DNA of 64,000 nucleotides from an uncultured Oscillospiraceae bacterium. Its GTDB lineage: Bacteria > Bacillota > Clostridia > Oscillospirales > Oscillospiraceae. A model generated the notes under the pieces. It was not told where the DNA came from. It did no database searches and saw only the letters and a list, made by a program, of their open reading frames with translations. Shown in pieces: positions 30,248-37,318 of the stretch; position 1 is the stretch's first letter, and every line of letters begins with the position of its first letter. The DNA is taken from positions 23,556 to 87,555 of the forward strand of contig CALWYL010000001.1 in assembly GCA_944385765.1 (NCBI GenBank). Reading direction: 5' to 3'. The position numbers and the translations under genes are program-made.

Positions 30248-30420
30248 GTTCATACCTCCAACTGAAGATTTTTCCCTATCATAATACCCCAAGTGGCAAA
30301 ATGCAAGCCCGTGTGGGCGATTTCACTCTGTTTCCGCTCCCATGTCACCCGCGCAGTGGCGAGCGCATATCCTGAGACGAGGGTCACCCCTCACAGGCTT
30401 CACCCAAGGAGGACTTGAAA

Positions 30421-30879
30421 TTGGAAAACAACAAACCCAACGGCAGCGGCTGCGCCTATAAGCAGGGCAGCCTGCCGTCCTGCGCCCCTCTGGCCGCGGC
30501 CTACGTGCCCATGCAGACGTCGAGCGAGCCGGCCTATTCCAGCGGAGAGGCCCTCTCCAGAGGCACGCTCTTCCCCGGACTCGACCTGCCGTTCCAGAAC
30601 ATCGTCAACAAGATGCCCGCCGACAGCACGCCCCTGCGCGAGCTGATGGCGCTGAATTTCGTGCTGCAGGAGCTGGCGCTGTACCTGGATACGCACCAGA
30701 GCGACTCCGCGGCCTTCGCCACCTACAAGAGCTTCCTGCAGCTGTACAACGACGGCAGGAGCAAATACGTGGAGCTCTACGGCCCCATAACCCGCTCCGA
30801 CCTGGCCCTCTCCGCCAGCTACGACTGGCTGAAGGGTCCCTGGCCATGGGAGTACGTCAACGGCAGCACGGAGGGCTGA
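30421..30879 (+). CDS. fused spore-coat proteins CotJA-CotJB
   Basis: N-terminal half has LAAAYVPMQ...EALSRGTLFPGLDLPF (CotJA motif). C-terminal half has LALYLDTHQSD...YGPI...WLKGPWPWE (CotJB motif). The second TTG (30421) lies 8 nt from GGAGG. Confidence 0.75.
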   Translation: MENNKPNGSGCAYKQGSLPSCAPLAAAYVPMQTSSEPAYSSGEALSRGTLFPGLDLPFQNIVNKMPADSTPLRELMALNFVLQELALYLDTHQSDSAAFATYKSFLQLYNDGRSKYVELYGPITRSDLALSASYDWLKGPWPWEYVNGSTEG

Positions 30880-30882
30880 GTC

Positions 30883-30978
30883 ATGTTTGTATATGAGAAG
30901 AAACTGCAATACCCGGTGAAAATCAAGAACACCAACCCCGCCCTCGCCAAGTTCATCATCTCACAGTATGGCGGGCCT
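30883..30978 (+). pseudogene. cotJC: cotJC 5' segment (codons 1-32) of an interrupted gene
   Basis: MFVYEKKLQYPVKIKNTNPALAKFIISQYGGP, then reading continues into element sequence and stops at 31048-31050. GGAGGG RBS lies 7 nt upstream. Confidence 0.9.
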
Positions 30979-31000
30979 CACCGCCCCAGGCTACATGTCC
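30970..31000. repeat. attL: core GGCGGGCCT (30970-30978) plus inner arm AGGCTACATGTCC (30988-31000)
   Basis: The core is repeated at 36809-36817. The arm is the exact reverse complement of 36786-36798. Confidence 0.75.
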
Positions 31001-31022: not shown

Positions 31023-31051
31023 TTGTGCTGCGGCGGCTTTGGTGCTATAAT
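31023..31051 (+). promoter_or_regulatory. sigma-A-type promoter for mod-res
   Basis: TTGTGC, 17-nt spacer, TGcTATAAT (extended -10), 30 nt upstream of the mod ATG. Confidence 0.5.
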
Positions 31052-31080: not shown

Positions 31081-32862
31081 ATGAGTACGAACATATCCAA
31101 ATTGAAGCGGGAGCGTCTGCTCTCCGGACTGGCGGAGCTGCGCGACTTTGTCGCCTCCTCCCCTCCCAGCGAGCTCACGGGCCGTCTGCTGGGCTGCCTG
31201 GCCGAGGTGGAGCGCGACATCTCCGGCCGCAAATACGGGGTGTTTTTCGAAGAGCACCGGGAGAACATAGACGAGTTGCTCAGCCGCAGCGTCCCCCTCC
31301 TCTGCGAGGAGCCGGAGCTCGCGCTGGGCAGTTCCGGGCCGCTTAATTTCCTCATAGAGGGGGACAATCTCGCCGCCTTACAGCTCCTGCTGAAGACACA
31401 CCGCGGCTCCATCGGCCTCATATACATAGACCCGCCGTATAACACCAACAACAACGACTTCATATACGACGACTCCTTCGTCGGAGCCGAGGACCTCTTC
31501 CGCCACAGCAAGTGGATGTCCTTCATGGACAAGCGCCTGCGCCTGGCGAGGAAGTTGCTGCGCCCTGACGGCAGCATCTTCATCTCCATAGACAACAATG
31601 AGTTCGCCCAGCTAAAGCTGCTCGCCGACAGGATTTTCGGCGAGGGCAGTTTTGTCACCGCCCTGCATGTGGAGATGTCCATCACCCAGGGCATGAAGGT
31701 GCGCGCCGCCAAGCAGGGCAACATCGTCAAAAACGGCGAATACATCCTGGTCTACAGGCTGGACGGCAGCAAAAACATAGGGCATGTCCCCCTCACCGAC
31801 CCCGTGAGGTACGACCCGCACTACTGCTCCTTCCTTTTGGGGGACGAGAGCCCCTTCACGGAGGTCCCGCTCTCCGCGGCCCTGGAGGGCGAGGGGGAGA
31901 TACTCGGCGCGCTGCGCCTGCTGGGCCTGCTGGACCGCCGCGGCTCCCTGCCCAACAAAAACCTGCCGGCCGCCTACGACAAGTGCGACGCCTTCCGCTC
32001 CTGGGTGAACGCCCACGCCGGGCGCATCTGCCGCACGCACGATGCCGTCAGCGTCAGCGACGAGGTGAGCGGGAACATGGTCCCCGGCCTCGTGTACAGC
32101 TACAGCTCCGACTCCCGCAGCTACCTGCTGAGCAAGAACGAGAGCGGCGGCGTCTACCAGCGCATCCCCCTCTCCGACAAGCTCTCCGTGGCCGACGACT
32201 ACTACGGCACCTACGGCCCCACGAAAATACGCGGGGACTGGTGGTCCGGCTTCTACCTGGACATGGGCAACATCGGCAAGGAGGGCGGCGTGGACTTCCT
32301 CAACGGCAAGAAGCCCAAGCGGCTCATCAAGCAGATAATCAAATTCGCCCTCCAGCGCGAGGACGACACAGTGCTGGACTTCTTCGCCGGCTCCGGCACC
32401 ACCGGCCAGGCGGTGATGGAGCTCAATGCCGAGGACGGCGGCCGCCGCCGCTTCATCCTCTGCACCAGCAATGAGAACGGCATCTGCCGCACCGTAACCT
32501 GGCCGCGGCTGCGCAATGTCATAGAGGGCGAGGGCCGCCGGGCCCGTCTCAAGTGCTTCCGCGTGGACTATCTGCCCACGGCCGGCCGGCTGTACTATGA
32601 GTACGCCGGCGAATTGCTCAAACACATGCGCGAGCTCGTCGAGCTGGAGACCGGCGCCGACTGCCCCGGCGATGAGGCCGCCATCGTGCTCGACGAATCC
32701 CAGCTCTGCGAGCTGCTCGGCAGCCCGCGCCTGGCCCGCTGCCGCCGGCTCTACATGCACAGCGACATCCTGCTCGGGGCGGATGAGGCCCAGCGCCTGA
32801 GCGACAGCGGCGTCACGCTCTGCCCCATACCAGAATACTACTACGACGAGACGGAGGGCTGA
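31081..32862 (+). CDS. mod: Type III-like DNA methyltransferase (Mod; beta-class N6A/N4C MTase)
   Basis: NFLIEGDNLAALQLL, IYIDPPYNT (motif IV) about 330 aa before LDFFAGSGTTGQAV (motif I), and HSKWMSFMDKRLRLARKLLRPDGSIFISID. Confidence 0.85.
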   Translation: MSTNISKLKRERLLSGLAELRDFVASSPPSELTGRLLGCLAEVERDISGRKYGVFFEEHRENIDELLSRSVPLLCEEPELALGSSGPLNFLIEGDNLAALQLLLKTHRGSIGLIYIDPPYNTNNNDFIYDDSFVGAEDLFRHSKWMSFMDKRLRLARKLLRPDGSIFISIDNNEFAQLKLLADRIFGEGSFVTALHVEMSITQGMKVRAAKQGNIVKNGEYILVYRLDGSKNIGHVPLTDPVRYDPHYCSFLLGDESPFTEVPLSAALEGEGEILGALRLLGLLDRRGSLPNKNLPAAYDKCDAFRSWVNAHAGRICRTHDAVSVSDEVSGNMVPGLVYSYSSDSRSYLLSKNESGGVYQRIPLSDKLSVADDYYGTYGPTKIRGDWWSGFYLDMGNIGKEGGVDFLNGKKPKRLIKQIIKFALQREDDTVLDFFAGSGTTGQAVMELNAEDGGRRRFILCTSNENGICRTVTWPRLRNVIEGEGRRARLKCFRVDYLPTAGRLYYEYAGELLKHMRELVELETGADCPGDEAAIVLDESQLCELLGSPRLARCRRLYMHSDILLGADEAQRLSDSGVTLCPIPEYYYDETEG

Positions 32863-32863
32863 C

Positions 32864-35059
32864 ATGGGTATCACACTGGCAAATTTTCAACTCCGCGCCA
32901 TAGCCGCGCTCAACGACGCCATGGAGCTCCCCGGCCGGGACATAGTCCTCAAGAGCTGCACCGGCAGCGGCAAGACCATCATGCTCACCAGCTTTATGGC
33001 GGGCTACCTGCTCGGCCACTCGCGCACTGTGTTCGTCTGGCTCACCCCCGGCCGCGGCGACCTGGAGGAGCAGAGCTGCGAGAAGATGCGCCGTTACGTG
33101 CACGGCTGCAGCGCCAAGCTGCTGCCCGACGTGATGTCCTCCGGCTTTGAGGAGAACGACGTCTGCTTCATCAACTGGGAGAAGCTGAACAAAAAGGGCA
33201 ATAACGCCCTCAAGGACTCCGAGCACGCCAATTTCATAGAGCTGGTGCGCTCCGCCCGCGAGCAGGGCCTGTCCTTCAAGGTGATAGTGGACGAGTCCCA
33301 CCAGAACAACACCATAAAGTCCTCCGACATACTGGGGCTCTTCCACACCGACAAGATAATCCGCTGCTCCGCCACCCCCCGCGCCGTGCGGGACGCCCTG
33401 CTCATCGAGGTGCCGGAGGAGGACGTGATTGCGGAGGGCCTGATAAAGAAGCTGCTCATAATAAACGAGGGCTTCGAGCAGCACATCCGGGTGGAAGACC
33501 AGGTGAGTTATCTCATAGACCGCGCCCTCTCCCGCCAGAGCGAGCTGAGGGGTGAATACCTCCGCCGCGGCGTGCAGGTCCAGCCCCTGATTATCGTCCA
33601 GCTGCCCAACAGGTCCGACGCCCTGCTGGAGAGCGTGGAGCGCTACTTTGACTCCCGCGGCATCACCTACGAGAACGGCCTGCTCTCCGTCTGGCTCTCC
33701 GACAAGAAGCAGAACCTGGAGGGCATCGCCGAGCCCGACGCCAGGCCCATAGCCGTCATCATCAAGCAGGCGGTGGCCACCGGCTGGGACTGCCCCCGGG
33801 CGCAGATACTGGTCAAGCTGCGCGACAACATGAGCGAGGTGTTTGAGATACAGACCATAGGCCGCATCCGCCGCATGCCGGAGGCCCGGCACTACGGCAG
33901 CGAGCTCCTGGACTGCTGCTATCTCTACACCCTGGATGAGAAATTCACCGAGAGCGTCAAGCTCAGCCTGGGCAAGGACGCCCTGGACGCCCGCCGGCTG
34001 CTGCTGCGCCCGGAATACCGCTCCATCTCCCTCGTCAGCCAGTACAAGACCGACGTCCCCTTCCCCCGCGACGCGCGGCTGGCTCTGGAGGTAATAGGCG
34101 GCTGGTACGTCTCCAAGTACCACACGGGCTCCGATATGGAGCGCAACCGCGCGGCATTGGAGGCCGGGGGCTACTCCTTCGCGCAGGACATAGTGAACTA
34201 CACCAAATCCGGCACCGTGGCCACTCTCGACAGCGAGGGCCTGGCCTCTCTCAACGACGTGGCCATCCACGAGGAGCTGAGCACCCATCGCCACGGCAAG
34301 GAGTATCACCACTGCGTCTCCGAGATAGGCCTGAAGATAGGCCTGGACTACACCAGCATAAACGCCATCATCCGCCGGCTCTTCCTGGAGGGGCTCAAGA
34401 GCCGGCCCAAGATTACCTCTCTGGGCATACGCGAGCTCTACTCCTTCGTCATCAACAACAAGTCTCTGCTGGTGGAGGATGTGCGCAGCGCCATGTCCGC
34501 CGAGACGGCCCAGCTGGCCCTTCCGGTAAGCGGCATCACGGAGCACCCCTTCACCTTCCCCTCCGAGCTCATGTTCACCTTTGACAGCACGTCCAAATCC
34601 CAGCAGGAGCTGACCAAGAACGTCTACGCCGGCTATCTCGCCTCCGCCGAGAAGCGCTCCCTGCCGGAAAAGCTCTTTGAGCAGTACTGCCAGCGCAGCC
34701 CGGGCATCTCCTGGTTCTACAAAAACGGCGACAAGGGCCCGGAGTACCTCTCCATCGTCTACGAGGACAACCTCGGCCGCCAGAAGTCCTTCTACCCCGA
34801 CTACGTGGTGGGCGGCTCCGACGGCAGCATCTGGGTTATAGAGACCAAGGGCGGCTTTACCCGCACCGGGGAGAGCGAGGACATCGACAGGTTCACGGCC
34901 AAGAAGTTCGCCGTGCTGAAAAAGTACCTGGAGCGCAATTCCCTCCGCGGAGGCATCGTCCGCCAGGACAAGCAGAGCGGAGAGCTGTGCATCTGCACCT
35001 ACGCCTACTCCGACGACATCCGGGACAGCTGCTGGCAGCTCCTCTCGGAAGTGCTCTAG
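32864..35059 (+). CDS. res: Type III-like restriction subunit (SF2 helicase plus C-terminal PD-(D/E)xK nuclease)
   Basis: SCTGSGKT (motif I), VIVDESHQ (II), CSATP (III), QTIGRIRR (VI). C-terminus has YPDYVV...IWVIETKGG. The ATG lies 1 nt after the mod stop. Confidence 0.8.
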   Translation: MGITLANFQLRAIAALNDAMELPGRDIVLKSCTGSGKTIMLTSFMAGYLLGHSRTVFVWLTPGRGDLEEQSCEKMRRYVHGCSAKLLPDVMSSGFEENDVCFINWEKLNKKGNNALKDSEHANFIELVRSAREQGLSFKVIVDESHQNNTIKSSDILGLFHTDKIIRCSATPRAVRDALLIEVPEEDVIAEGLIKKLLIINEGFEQHIRVEDQVSYLIDRALSRQSELRGEYLRRGVQVQPLIIVQLPNRSDALLESVERYFDSRGITYENGLLSVWLSDKKQNLEGIAEPDARPIAVIIKQAVATGWDCPRAQILVKLRDNMSEVFEIQTIGRIRRMPEARHYGSELLDCCYLYTLDEKFTESVKLSLGKDALDARRLLLRPEYRSISLVSQYKTDVPFPRDARLALEVIGGWYVSKYHTGSDMERNRAALEAGGYSFAQDIVNYTKSGTVATLDSEGLASLNDVAIHEELSTHRHGKEYHHCVSEIGLKIGLDYTSINAIIRRLFLEGLKSRPKITSLGIRELYSFVINNKSLLVEDVRSAMSAETAQLALPVSGITEHPFTFPSELMFTFDSTSKSQQELTKNVYAGYLASAEKRSLPEKLFEQYCQRSPGISWFYKNGDKGPEYLSIVYEDNLGRQKSFYPDYVVGGSDGSIWVIETKGGFTRTGESEDIDRFTAKKFAVLKKYLERNSLRGGIVRQDKQSGELCICTYAYSDDIRDSCWQLLSEVL

Positions 35060-35081: not shown

Positions 35082-35306
35082 TCACCCCCGGTTTCCGCAC
35101 GCCTCTCCCCCGTCTTTCTCCCCTTTCCCCTCCGCTTTTTTCACTCTGAACACCGCTCTTCCCCGGAACAGCTCGTTCAGGTAAGTAAAACGCAGCCAAT
35201 CGGCCAGCGCCCGGCGCTGCTCGTCATCCAGCTCAGATACCGGCTTGAGCTCGCCGTTTACCCTCACCATGGCCTCCACACGCAATTTATCACCCCCATA
35301 GAGCAT
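35082..35306 (-). CDS. small hypothetical protein divergent from the recombinase gene (candidate excision cofactor)
   Basis: 74 aa, MLYGGDKLRVEAMVRVNGELKPVSELDDEQRRALADWL... GGGGG lies 6 nt upstream. I recognise no family, and coding status is uncertain. Confidence 0.35.
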   Translation of the reverse strand: MLYGGDKLRVEAMVRVNGELKPVSELDDEQRRALADWLRFTYLNELFRGRAVFRVKKAEGKGEKDGGEACGNRG

Positions 35307-35370
35307 ATGCGGCCCCCAGCCCGCGGAGACTTCTCTCCCCGTCGGCCGCGCCATATGCTGTATGGGGGTG
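35291..35370. repeat. about 24-bp near-perfect inverted repeat spanning the recombinase start
   Basis: CACCCCCATAGAGCATATGCGGCC (35291-35314) pairs with GGCCGCgcCATATGCTGTATGGGGGTG (35344-35370). Confidence 0.7.
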
Positions 35371-36795
35371 ATTTTCGTGCGCCGCTGCGCCGCCTATATC
35401 CGCGTTTCCACCGATGACCAGGCCGAACTCTCCCCGGAGAGCCAGCTGGAGGAGATAAAAAAGTACGCCCTCCGCGAGTCGCTCGTCCTGCTCCCGGAGC
35501 ACATCTATGCCGACACCGGCATCTCCGGCAAAAGCGCCAGCAACCGCCCGGAATTCATGCGGATGATAGCCGCCGCCAAGGGGCCTGACTGCCCGTTCTC
35601 GGTGATTTTGCTCTGGAAGTACTCCCGTTTTGCCCGCAATCAGGAGGAGAGCATATTCTACAAGTCCGTTCTCCGCTCCAAATGCGGCGTCGATGTGGTC
35701 AGCGTCACCGAGCCCCTTGTCTCCGGGCCCTTCGGCAGTTTGATAGAGCGCATCATCGAGTGGATGGACGAATTCTACTCCATCCGCCTCAGCCAGGAGG
35801 TCCGCCGCAGCATGGCGCTGAACGCCTCTCAGGGCAGGCTGCAATCCGCCCCGCCCTTCGGATATCGGGCCTCCGGCGGCTCTCTGGAGGTCGTGGCGGA
35901 AGAGGCCGATTGGGTGAGACACATATATTCGGCCTTCTTATCAGGCCGGAGCACGCGCTCCATCGCGCTCGAGCTGAACGACGCCGCCGTGCACACCCAC
36001 CGGGGCGGAAACTTTGAGAGCCGCACCATAGAGTACATCCTGCGCAACCCCGCCTACACCGGCCAGCTGCGCTGGCACGAGCGCGGCGGCGATGTCATAG
36101 TGGCCCGGGGCTCACACGAGCCAATACTGGACCGCGCTTCCTGGGAGGCCGCGCAGAGGCGTCTCGACGACTTGAAATCCCGCCGCCATCCACACTCGCG
36201 GCCGGCCGACGGCCTGAAATTCTGGGCGGGCGGGCTGGTGAGGTGCGCCGCGTGCGGTTCAACGCTGGTGTACGAAAAGGGCGGCCGCTGCAAGTGCAAC
36301 GGCTACGCCCGCGGGCGCTGCCGCGAGTCCCAGCGCACGCCCGTATCCGTTCTGGAGTCGGCAATCATGTCCCGCCTGGAACTCGATTCCCGGGATGCCG
36401 CGCCGGCGGAATATGAACTTCTGCCTCCGCAGCCGCCCCCGGACGCCTCTCTCCCGGGACTGCGCTCCTCACTGCGCAGGGCCGCAGCGGAGAAAAGGCG
36501 TCTCCTGGACGCATACACATCCGGCGCGCTCGACCTGGAGGCCTTCCGCCGCGCCGCTGAGGAGCTGTCGGCCCGCTGCGGGCGGCTGGAGTCCTCCCTG
36601 CGGGCGCTGGAGGCGTCACCATCCCCATGCCCCTCCGCGCAGCTGGAGAGCTCAGTCCGCGCGGCCCTCACATCGCTCTCTGACGCCGGCGGCACCCTCG
36701 AAGAGCGCAACGCCGCCGCCAGATGCGTACTGGAGAGCTGCGTTTACAGCCGGTCCGGGGATAAGCTCACCCTCATCTACCGCCTGGACATGTAG
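35362..36795 (+). CDS. large serine recombinase (resolvase catalytic domain + recombinase domain + zinc ribbon + coiled coil)
   Basis: AAYIRVSTDDQ (catalytic Ser), LLWKYSRFARN, PPFGYR, CAACGSTLVYEKGGRCKCNGYARGRC. An alternative GTG start at 35377 lies 6 nt after GGGGGTG (35364-35370). Confidence 0.9.
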   Translation: MGVIFVRRCAAYIRVSTDDQAELSPESQLEEIKKYALRESLVLLPEHIYADTGISGKSASNRPEFMRMIAAAKGPDCPFSVILLWKYSRFARNQEESIFYKSVLRSKCGVDVVSVTEPLVSGPFGSLIERIIEWMDEFYSIRLSQEVRRSMALNASQGRLQSAPPFGYRASGGSLEVVAEEADWVRHIYSAFLSGRSTRSIALELNDAAVHTHRGGNFESRTIEYILRNPAYTGQLRWHERGGDVIVARGSHEPILDRASWEAAQRRLDDLKSRRHPHSRPADGLKFWAGGLVRCAACGSTLVYEKGGRCKCNGYARGRCRESQRTPVSVLESAIMSRLELDSRDAAPAEYELLPPQPPPDASLPGLRSSLRRAAAEKRRLLDAYTSGALDLEAFRRAAEELSARCGRLESSLRALEASPSPCPSAQLESSVRAALTSLSDAGGTLEERNAAARCVLESCVYSRSGDKLTLIYRLDM

Positions 36796-36817
36796 CCTGC
36801 TGCAGTCAGGCGGCCCT
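36786..36817. repeat. attR: inner arm GGACATGTAGCCT (36786-36798) plus core GGCGGCCCT (36809-36817)
   Basis: The arm overlaps the recombinase stop codon (ATG TAG). The core is an 8/9 match to attL. Confidence 0.75.
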
Positions 36818-37318
36818 GACGGGGAGCTGGGCGCCTCGCTGCGCTATCTGAGCCAGCGCTATTCCATGCCCTGCGCTGAGCTGAAGGGCCTTCTCACCGA
36901 CATCGGCACCGAGGAACTGGGACACCTGGAGATGATAGGCGCCATAGTCCATCAGCTCACTCGCAAGCTGACTCCTGAGCAGATAAAGGCCGCCGGCTTC
37001 GACGCCTATTTTGTCGACCACACGGCCGGCGTGTACCCGGCAGCCGCCGCCGGTTTCCCCTGGAACGCCGCCAGCATGGCCGTCAAGGGCGATGTCCTGG
37101 CCGACCTCAATGAGGATTTGGCCGCGGAGCAGAAGGCCCGCGTGACCTACGACAACATTCTCCGCCTCTCCGACGACCCGGATGTCAACGACGTCATACG
37201 CTTCCTGCGCGAGCGCGAGGTGGTCCACTATCAGCGCTTCGGCGAGGGGCTGCGGCTCGCCCAGGAAAAGCTCGACCAGAAGAACTACTATGCCGTAAAT
37301 CCCGCTTTCGACAAATAA
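36818..37318 (+). pseudogene. cotJC: cotJC 3' segment (166 codons) of the interrupted gene
   Basis: DGELGASLRYLSQRYSMP...LTDIGTEELGHLEMIG...AAEQKARVTYDN...FLREREVVHYQRF matches the Mn-catalase-family CotJC. There is no own start codon or RBS. Confidence 0.9.

Follow-up and report, generated by a model that had tools for sequence, protein, structure and literature searches.

Probable attachment sites of a large serine recombinase element that splits the spore-coat gene cotJC in an uncultured Oscillospiraceae bacterium

A stretch of 64,000 nucleotides from an uncultured Oscillospiraceae bacterium, referred to here as the window, contains a 5.84-kb element that interrupts the spore-coat gene cotJC in frame, as judged from the open reading frames (ORFs) of the window and their Pfam matches. 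The ends of the element are marked by a short direct repeat and by a pair of inverted repeats, which raises the question of what these two junctions are, which enzyme recognises them and between which bases the strands would be exchanged. The two sites are very probably the attL and attR of an integrated element and are recognised by its own large serine recombinase (LSR), encoded at positions 35362-36795. Each junction would be a hybrid of a host half-site, drawn from approximately codons 22-40 of cotJC, and an element half-site. Coordinates are those of the window, and features lie on the plus strand unless stated otherwise.

CotJC is a spore-coat protein of the Mn-catalase family. The 5' part of its gene (30883-30974) runs from codon 1 to the first two bases of the Gly31 codon and covers positions 1-32 of the Pfam Mn_catalase profile. 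The 3' part, which extends through the stop codon (36814-37318), matches the same profile with an E-value of 6.2e-42. Joined to each other with one core copy removed, the two parts form an open frame of 198 codons that encodes a Mn_catalase/CotJC protein. A profile search of the host genome recovered Spo0A (Spo0A_C, 3.4e-47) and the SpoIVA ATPase (9.9e-113), a gene content by which the host would be classed as an endospore former.

At the left junction the core GGCGGGCCT (30970-30978) is followed after 9 nt by AGGCTACATGTCC (30988-31000), and at the right junction GGACATGTAGCCT (36786-36798) is followed after 10 nt by the core GGCGGCCCT (36809-36817). The two 13-mers are exact reverse complements of each other and belong to an inverted repeat of 14 nt (36786-36799 against 30987-31000), while the flank pattern CAGTnnGGCGGnCCTnAC is found at both junctions. 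A preliminary description of the locus had listed these 13-mers, cores, spacings and matching flanks, and all of them are found where it placed them. With a half-site length of 27 nt, defined by the outer end of the 13-mer arm, reconstruction and symmetry analysis place attL at 30947-31000, composed of the host half-site B (30947-30973) and the element half-site P' (30974-31000), and attR at 36786-36839, composed of the element half-site P (36786-36812) and the host half-site B' (36813-36839). The outer arm of P' (CAGGCTACATGTCC, 30987-31000) is non-coding and is the exact 14-nt reverse complement of the outer arm of P (GGACATGTAGCCTG, 36786-36799), which overlaps the recombinase gene over its TAG stop and the two codons before it. 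The predicted crossover dinucleotide is GG in both sites, at 30973-30974 in attL, where it forms the first two bases of the Gly31 codon, and at 36812-36813 in attR; the prediction draws on the dyad centre and on the orientation rule described below.

Joining the element ends in silico gives the attP GGACATGTAGCCTGCTGCAGTCAGGCGG/GCCTCACCGCCCCAGGCTACATGTCC, where the slash marks the point of joining. This site matches itself at 21 of 26 half-site positions. None of 20000 random centres in the window reached 21 mirror matches (mean 6.9, sd 2.35). When 60-nt segments of the window were paired at random, the longest inverted repeat among 2000 pairs was 12 nt (mean 5.8), short of the 13 nt observed. 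Chance is thereby ruled out for both the arms and the attP symmetry. A scan of all possible centres places the best dyad between core positions 4 and 5. The roughly 54-bp dyad-symmetric LSR attP that had been proposed from the sequence is therefore borne out, with independent agreement from related elements, and its symmetry centre, previously put somewhere inside GGCGG, can be narrowed to a single position that recurs in all 18 complete elements compared below.

In serine-integrase systems attP is typically symmetric, attB is less so, and attL and attR are hybrids (PMC3783163, PMC5499854). The rebuilt attP is pseudo-palindromic and about 50 bp long, and inner-30 half-site self-matches number 22 in attP, 15 in attB, 13 in attL and 10 in attR. 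The attB is less symmetric than the attP and has only the inner core in common with it: P half-sites and B half-sites are in agreement at 64-69% over positions 2-10 and at 16-28% beyond them, which is what a common inner core would give on the model of the Listeria phage A118-family (LI) integrase bound to attP (PMC3783163). The LI attP is likewise pseudo-palindromic, with half-sites of about 25 bp and an inner core common to attP and attB. Its zinc-ribbon domain binds half-site positions 16-24 (PMC3783163), where the 13-mers of the window element, at positions 15-27, are also found. The full 14-nt arms occupy positions 14-27, and the 13-14-nt outer arms would thereby correspond to the zone that the zinc ribbon contacts in solved LSR-attP complexes. 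For the inward shift of about 5 bp that is expected of the outer motif in attB, the window element gives no clear peak, and the window recombinase is known by its sequence only.

The recombinase (35362-36795) is a 477 aa protein that matches the Pfam families Resolvase (1.6e-23) and Recombinase PF07508 (6.2e-22) as well as a PHROG integrase family (1.3e-94, residues 7-467). Its PDB matches include the catalytic domain of the TP901-1 integrase (8.7e-9) and SPbeta SprA. An N-terminal resolvase-type catalytic domain, in whose translation the serine motif AAYIRVSTDDQ can be read, is combined with a C-terminal recombinase domain (RD), as expected of an LSR. The sequence also shows a cluster of cysteines (CAAC...CKC...C) and then a stretch rich in Leu, Ala, Arg and Glu that is possibly helical. 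It is the only recombinase of the element, and no transposase is found among the element's Pfam matches.

The position of the crossover was approached by comparison across the family. A recombinase scan of a genome collection returned 79 loci, of which about 50 carry a cotJC fragment a few dozen bases past the recombinase stop codon, and more than 40 related insertions occupy the same cotJC codon. Insertions are found both in the orientation of the gene and reversed. Both ends are available for 18 elements: seven forward, seven reversed, whose far ends were located on another contig, and four further forward elements from the genus and order of the window. The best dyad centre falls exactly between core positions 4 and 5 in 18/18 complete elements, with 15-21 matches out of 26. 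The arm sequences themselves are often unrelated to those of the window; the element at L088, for example, carries TTATAATAAAAAGCCGTC on both sides. The arms thus change from element to element and yet stay mirror images about the same point, which amounts to covariation. Furthermore, a weight matrix derived from the forward class accommodates the recombinase-proximal arms of reversed elements at a shift of zero (score +148) and at no other shift (-141 or less).

The central dinucleotide determines the polarity of insertion by serine integrases. Read in the orientation of the recombinase, it is GG in all forward insertions (29/29) and CC in all reversed ones (12/12), a pattern that would constitute a natural experiment on this rule. 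It also provides indirect, comparative evidence that crossover would take place at a central, non-palindromic and polarity-fixing dinucleotide, here GG at core positions 4-5. A well-supported split in the recombinase tree has the cotJC-associated enzymes on one side, and the orientation label requires at least eight changes on well-supported branches. One long branch belongs to a recombinase from another family of the order, with 40% identity, which accompanies a 3.2-kb insert at the same cotJC codon (L137; G045:C1:1875302-1878729), the smallest such element in this analysis.

Could the architecture be right and the 2-bp crossover lie elsewhere in GGCGG, for instance at GG in positions 1-2 or at CG in positions 3-4? 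All five bases are shared by attL and attR in the window, so that its sequence alone cannot choose, and the GG at positions 1-2 is invariant in every element. Against this, the dyad centre lies at 4/5 in every complete element and also in unintegrated attP sites, the arm register of the reversed elements fits only this centre, and in several elements attL and attR have different bases at position 3, so that the GC and CG dinucleotides there are excluded. At L058 both positions 3 and 6 differ between attL and attR. These differences leave the GG at 4-5 as a separate block of identity; the GG at 1-2 is isolated in the same way, and it is the dyad centre that picks 4-5. A crossover elsewhere in GGCGG is consequently considered unlikely. 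The 9-bp core is not an overlap region; identity between attL and attR is required only across GGCGG.

Unintegrated sites were found in five relatives, in which an intact attP of the predicted form directly follows the recombinase stop codon. Three of these have GG at the centre (L056, L048, L105) and two have CC (L060, L110); that of L056 reads TTGTAGCATAATGGAGTATGGT-GG-GCCATACTCCATTATGCTACAA. In the genomes of all five, cotJC is unbroken at the Gly30-Gly31 site. The contigs that carry the intact attP sites are 35-47 kb in length. Ten ORFs in the surroundings of the free attP sites of L056 and L060, compared with PHROG, gave no matches to phage hallmark proteins, and these contigs are therefore not called phages. 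Three further loci differ in what follows the recombinase gene. The recombinase at L035 is nearly identical to that of L037, which lies in cotJC, and the sequence after it (L035:9426-9530) is neither cotJC nor a recognisable attP. At L093 and L095 the recombinase is followed by a common arm and then by ...TTCGGCTCACC..., which suggests that these elements may have a different target or dinucleotide.

The two cores of the window differ at position 6, which is G at the left junction and C at the right junction and lies one base 3' of the predicted crossover. The preliminary description had argued that this difference helps to localise the crossover. The difference does adjoin the predicted crossover on its 3' side; the window alone allows every position in GGCGG, and the choice of 4-5 comes from the dyad centre and the relatives. 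As position 6 is situated just 3' of the crossover, the left G would be derived from the element (P') and the right C from the host (B'), and it is predicted that attB carries C and attP carries G at this position. The closest empty sites read GGCGGC, and across empty sites position 6 may be C, G, A or T. Since position 6 is the variable wobble base of a glycine codon, the C of the empty sites lends only weak support to a host origin.

The same G/C pattern at core position 6 is present in a sister species, G003, which carries the same element with 78-80% nucleotide identity, against 81% for the host flanks; element and host are thus about equally diverged between the two species. Both arms of the G003 element keep GGACATGTAGCC. 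The non-coding arm together with 5 further nt (AGGCTACATGTCCGCAGC) is conserved at 18/18 positions, whereas divergence is seen in the spacer from arm to core. The two sides covary at half-site position 8, where G/G has become A/A.

Inverted repeats near both ends and a flanking direct repeat superficially resemble the terminal inverted repeats and target-site duplication of a cut-and-paste transposon, with the 9-bp cores as the duplication. This is a highly improbable explanation, as the inverted repeats lie 9-10 nt inside the direct repeat instead of abutting it, the sole recombinase is an LSR with no transposase present, and the supposed duplication shows the same imperfection in two species. 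The family-wide data also speak against it, namely the more than 40 related insertions at one codon, whose orientation depends on the dinucleotide, and the intact attP sites of the relatives. The DDE-type transposon was rejected as a candidate on account of the missing transposase, the 9-10-nt gap and the single target codon shared by the family.

A different kind of explanation would hold that the 13-mers are conserved for reasons other than recombination, coding for the C-terminus of the recombinase on one side and serving as a promoter or terminator on the other. The right arm does overlap the Leu-Asp-Met-stop codons, and the methylase gene of the element has a sigma-70-like -35/-10 pair about 23 nt downstream of the left arm. 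However, such constraints leave unexplained both the exact reverse complementarity of the arms and their equal spacing from a common centre, and the same mirror arrangement is built from different sequences in 17 other elements. On these grounds the terminator and coding-constraint reading was rejected, and it retains hardly any probability.

The overlap itself merits comment. The recombinase ORF ends in CTG GAC ATG TAG, with the TAG (36793-36795) inside the right arm, and from this the preliminary description had concluded that the binding site and the end of the gene are coupled. Physically this is so, and the arrangement recurs in the family: at nearly all loci the stop codon of the recombinase gene ends at a distance of 17-37 nt from the centre, and the window, G003/L034, L049 and L054 share a TAG in one arm register, with a distance of 17 nt. 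At L052 a TAG is present at the same place in the arm, but the recombinase stops earlier. As the arm lies wholly on the element side of the crossover, the recombinase gene stays whole whether the element is integrated or excised. The overlap of stop codon and arm is therefore real and recurrent, but a functional coupling is not supported, and nothing points beyond the compaction that is typical of this family.

If the junctions are attL and attR, the copy in the window might still be an immobile relic, with sites that were once functional and a cotJC that is dead. The excised form was not found in any collection searched, and cotJC is uninterrupted in most congeners. (The cotJC of G008 was considered as another split copy and rejected, as it merely contains a contig break within an intact gene.) On the other hand, all ORFs of the element are open, its two arms are perfectly matched, and the non-coding arm is kept at 18/18 positions in G003 against a background identity of about 78%. 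The split cotJC contains no stop codons or frameshifts. Comparison with intact orthologues gives a ratio of nonsynonymous to synonymous substitution rates (dN/dS) of 0.05-0.14, and comparison with the G003 copy, which is split likewise, gives 0.05 at a synonymous divergence (dS) of 0.8. The split gene is thus still under purifying selection. An intact split gene with low dN/dS, in an element that is about as diverged as its host, fits long residence in a gene that is still in use, and hence regular and precise excision. A relic is accordingly rather improbable, and the window copy probably still excises.

Excision would proceed by cleavage of both junctions at the GG that opens the Gly31 codon (30973-30974 and 36812-36813), followed by subunit rotation and religation. 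One product would be an intact 198-codon cotJC that carries the attB ...CAGTATGGCGG/CCCTGACGG..., and the other a 5.84-kb circle that carries the dyad attP of about 54 bp. The attB junction is predicted to read ...CACAGTATGGCGGCCCTGACGGG..., with C at core position 6, and the junction of the circle ...GCAGTCAGGCGGGCCTCACCGC..., with G at this position. Being non-palindromic, the GG would fix the polarity of insertion, and relatives with a CC attP lie reversed in cotJC. By analogy with skin, SPbeta and gin, excision would take place in the mother cell during sporulation and would need a recombination directionality factor.

A candidate for this factor is a small ORF of 90 aa on the minus strand (35082-35354), divergent from the recombinase gene. 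It has no family match in Pfam, NCBIfam or PHROG. In at least 13 other cotJC elements, whose cargo differs, a conserved counterpart of its residues 23-86 is encoded on the opposite strand, next to either the recombinase or attL. On account of this conservation, and by analogy with SprB, GirX and CD1234 (PMC5499854, PMC5595907, PMC5025042), it can reasonably be put forward as a candidate directionality factor. The short gap between the small ORF and the start of the recombinase gene is spanned by a near-perfect inverted repeat, CCCCCATAGAGCATATGCGGCC ... GGCCGCGCCATATGCTGTATGGGGG (35291-35370), which may be an operator.

Several points weigh against the account of the junctions as attL and attR of an excisable LSR element. 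The zinc-ribbon family PF13408 scores 19.9 bits (E-value 9.8e-4) on the recombinase, below the curated cut-off of 25.3 bits. The predicted 5-bp inward shift of the attB outer motif gives an identity of 0.33, and shifts of 10, 7 and 2 are similar. Sequence identity in the window permits a crossover anywhere in GGCGG, and the choice of positions 4-5 comes from symmetry and from relatives. No contig found in the search encodes an identical recombinase, the exact attP junction of the window was not found in metagenome contigs, and the two arms with a spacer of 24-34 nt were not found in metagenome or viral contigs. Finally, both the mother-cell timing and the role of the small ORF are drawn from analogy.

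The remaining genes of the element are cargo. A DNA methyltransferase (31081-32862; Pfam N6_N4_Mtase 1.2e-28, PHROG DNA methyltransferase 1.7e-29) is followed after 1 nt by a protein of the ResIII/SF2 helicase type (32864-35059; Pfam ResIII 1.2e-12), which is probably a restriction subunit; its restriction-endonuclease matches in NCBIfam are weak only (E-value 0.0085). The pair may be a type III-like restriction-modification system, in which a Mod methyltransferase is followed by an SF2-helicase Res subunit with a nuclease motif. The sigma-70-like promoter of the methylase gene (31023-31051) consists of TTGTGC, a 17-nt spacer and TATAAT with an upstream TG, and starts 23 nt inside the left arm. 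As this promoter lies inside the element, the cargo appears to be expressed from its own promoter, independently of cotJ transcription. Directly upstream of cotJC a single ORF of 154 aa (30415-30879) unites the Pfam domains CotJA (1.4e-14) and CotJB (1.5e-22) in a natural cotJA-cotJB fusion gene.

The window element is skin-like in that it splits a sporulation gene in frame; its mechanism is that of the serine integrases and its biology that of skin, SPbeta and gin. SPbeta of Bacillus subtilis, with its recombinase SprA and the factor SprB, splits spsM, which is also a mother-cell sporulation gene, and has a highly symmetric attP of about 52 bp and a less symmetric attB (PMC5499854, PMC4191935). 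As in the window, its crossover lies at a non-palindromic central dinucleotide within a short sequence common to the four att sites, and SprA is among the PDB matches of the window recombinase. In contrast, the target is spsM and not cotJC, the dinucleotide is AA and not GG, and SPbeta is a full-length prophage, whereas the window element measures 5.8 kb and contains no detected phage genes. Excision, its timing and the directionality factor are proven for SPbeta and proposed for the window element. The gin element in gerE of Bacillus cereus ATCC 10987 (GirC and GirX) is, like the window element, a non-phage intervening element in a spore gene, and it combines a restriction-modification system with a serine recombinase and a small accessory factor (PMC5595907), for which the putative restriction-modification pair, the recombinase and the candidate small ORF would be the counterparts in the window. 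It differs in its size of 28.6 kb, its three recombinases and its target, against 5.8 kb, one recombinase and cotJC in the window. The skin elements in sigK (SpoIVCA in B. subtilis; CD1231 with the directionality factor CD1234 in Clostridioides difficile) are LSR elements that are developmentally excised to rebuild a mother-cell gene, and in C. difficile the small directionality factor confers cell-type specificity (PMC5025042). They have a different target and a different recombinase lineage, and the cotJC family is known from sequence alone.

cotJC is listed as an insertion target by Abe et al. 2013, as cited in bioRxiv 10.1101/2021.11.22.469490. No account of att sites, crossover position or an orientation rule for cotJC elements was found in the searchable literature. 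The family-wide test of the centre is new here, as are the rule that links GG or CC to orientation, the attP sites found unintegrated and the alleles predicted for the window element.

Related recombinases are found at other targets. Sister-clade enzymes with 35-42% identity lie inside sleC, which encodes the pre-pro-form of a spore cortex-lytic enzyme, inserted forward at L071-L073, L076, L081, L083, L089, L090, L096, L097, L101, L107-L109 and L112 and reversed at L074 and L077. The gene is broken at ...CPGWMT/QWGS..., and the rejoined product matches PDB 9h68 at 3e-139. A second interruption of cotJC lies about 35 codons downstream at the motif DIGTEE/LGH (L044:9581-13911, and also L037, L042, L045, L046 and L082). 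The second insert at L044 is 4.3 kb long and encodes two further large serine recombinases of 487 and 613 aa, the latter of which ends 19 nt before cotJC resumes. Three near-identical outgroup recombinases (L085, L102 and L104) are encoded in Bacteroidota contigs labelled Bacteroidaceae, Odoribacter and Bacteroidales, each of them convergent with the start (M-P-L-I-V-L-D-A-G-H-G-G) of an apparent N-acetylmuramoyl-L-alanine amidase gene and separated from it by a few dozen nt.

It may be speculated, as a tentative and rather doubtful proposal, that this recombinase lineage has specialised in spore genes, with two sites in cotJC and sleC in the sister clade, and has repeatedly flipped its attP between GG and CC to switch polarity. 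The putative restriction-modification pair, which is the only cargo of the window element, could in that case act as an addiction module that makes loss from the germ line costly but leaves excision possible in the terminal mother cell.

The window element adds a well-supported, though in itself ordinary, case to a known system, and as the mechanism is already established the result refines current knowledge and does not change it. It provides a precise and testable map of attB, attP, the 2-bp crossover and the product alleles for a widespread and little-described element family of gut Clostridia, a family that illustrates how the central dinucleotide alone may set the polarity of a serine integrase at one host codon. 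Recombinases with defined attP/attB pairs could join the serine-integrase toolbox, and split copies of cotJC in metagenome-assembled genomes should not be annotated as pseudogenes.

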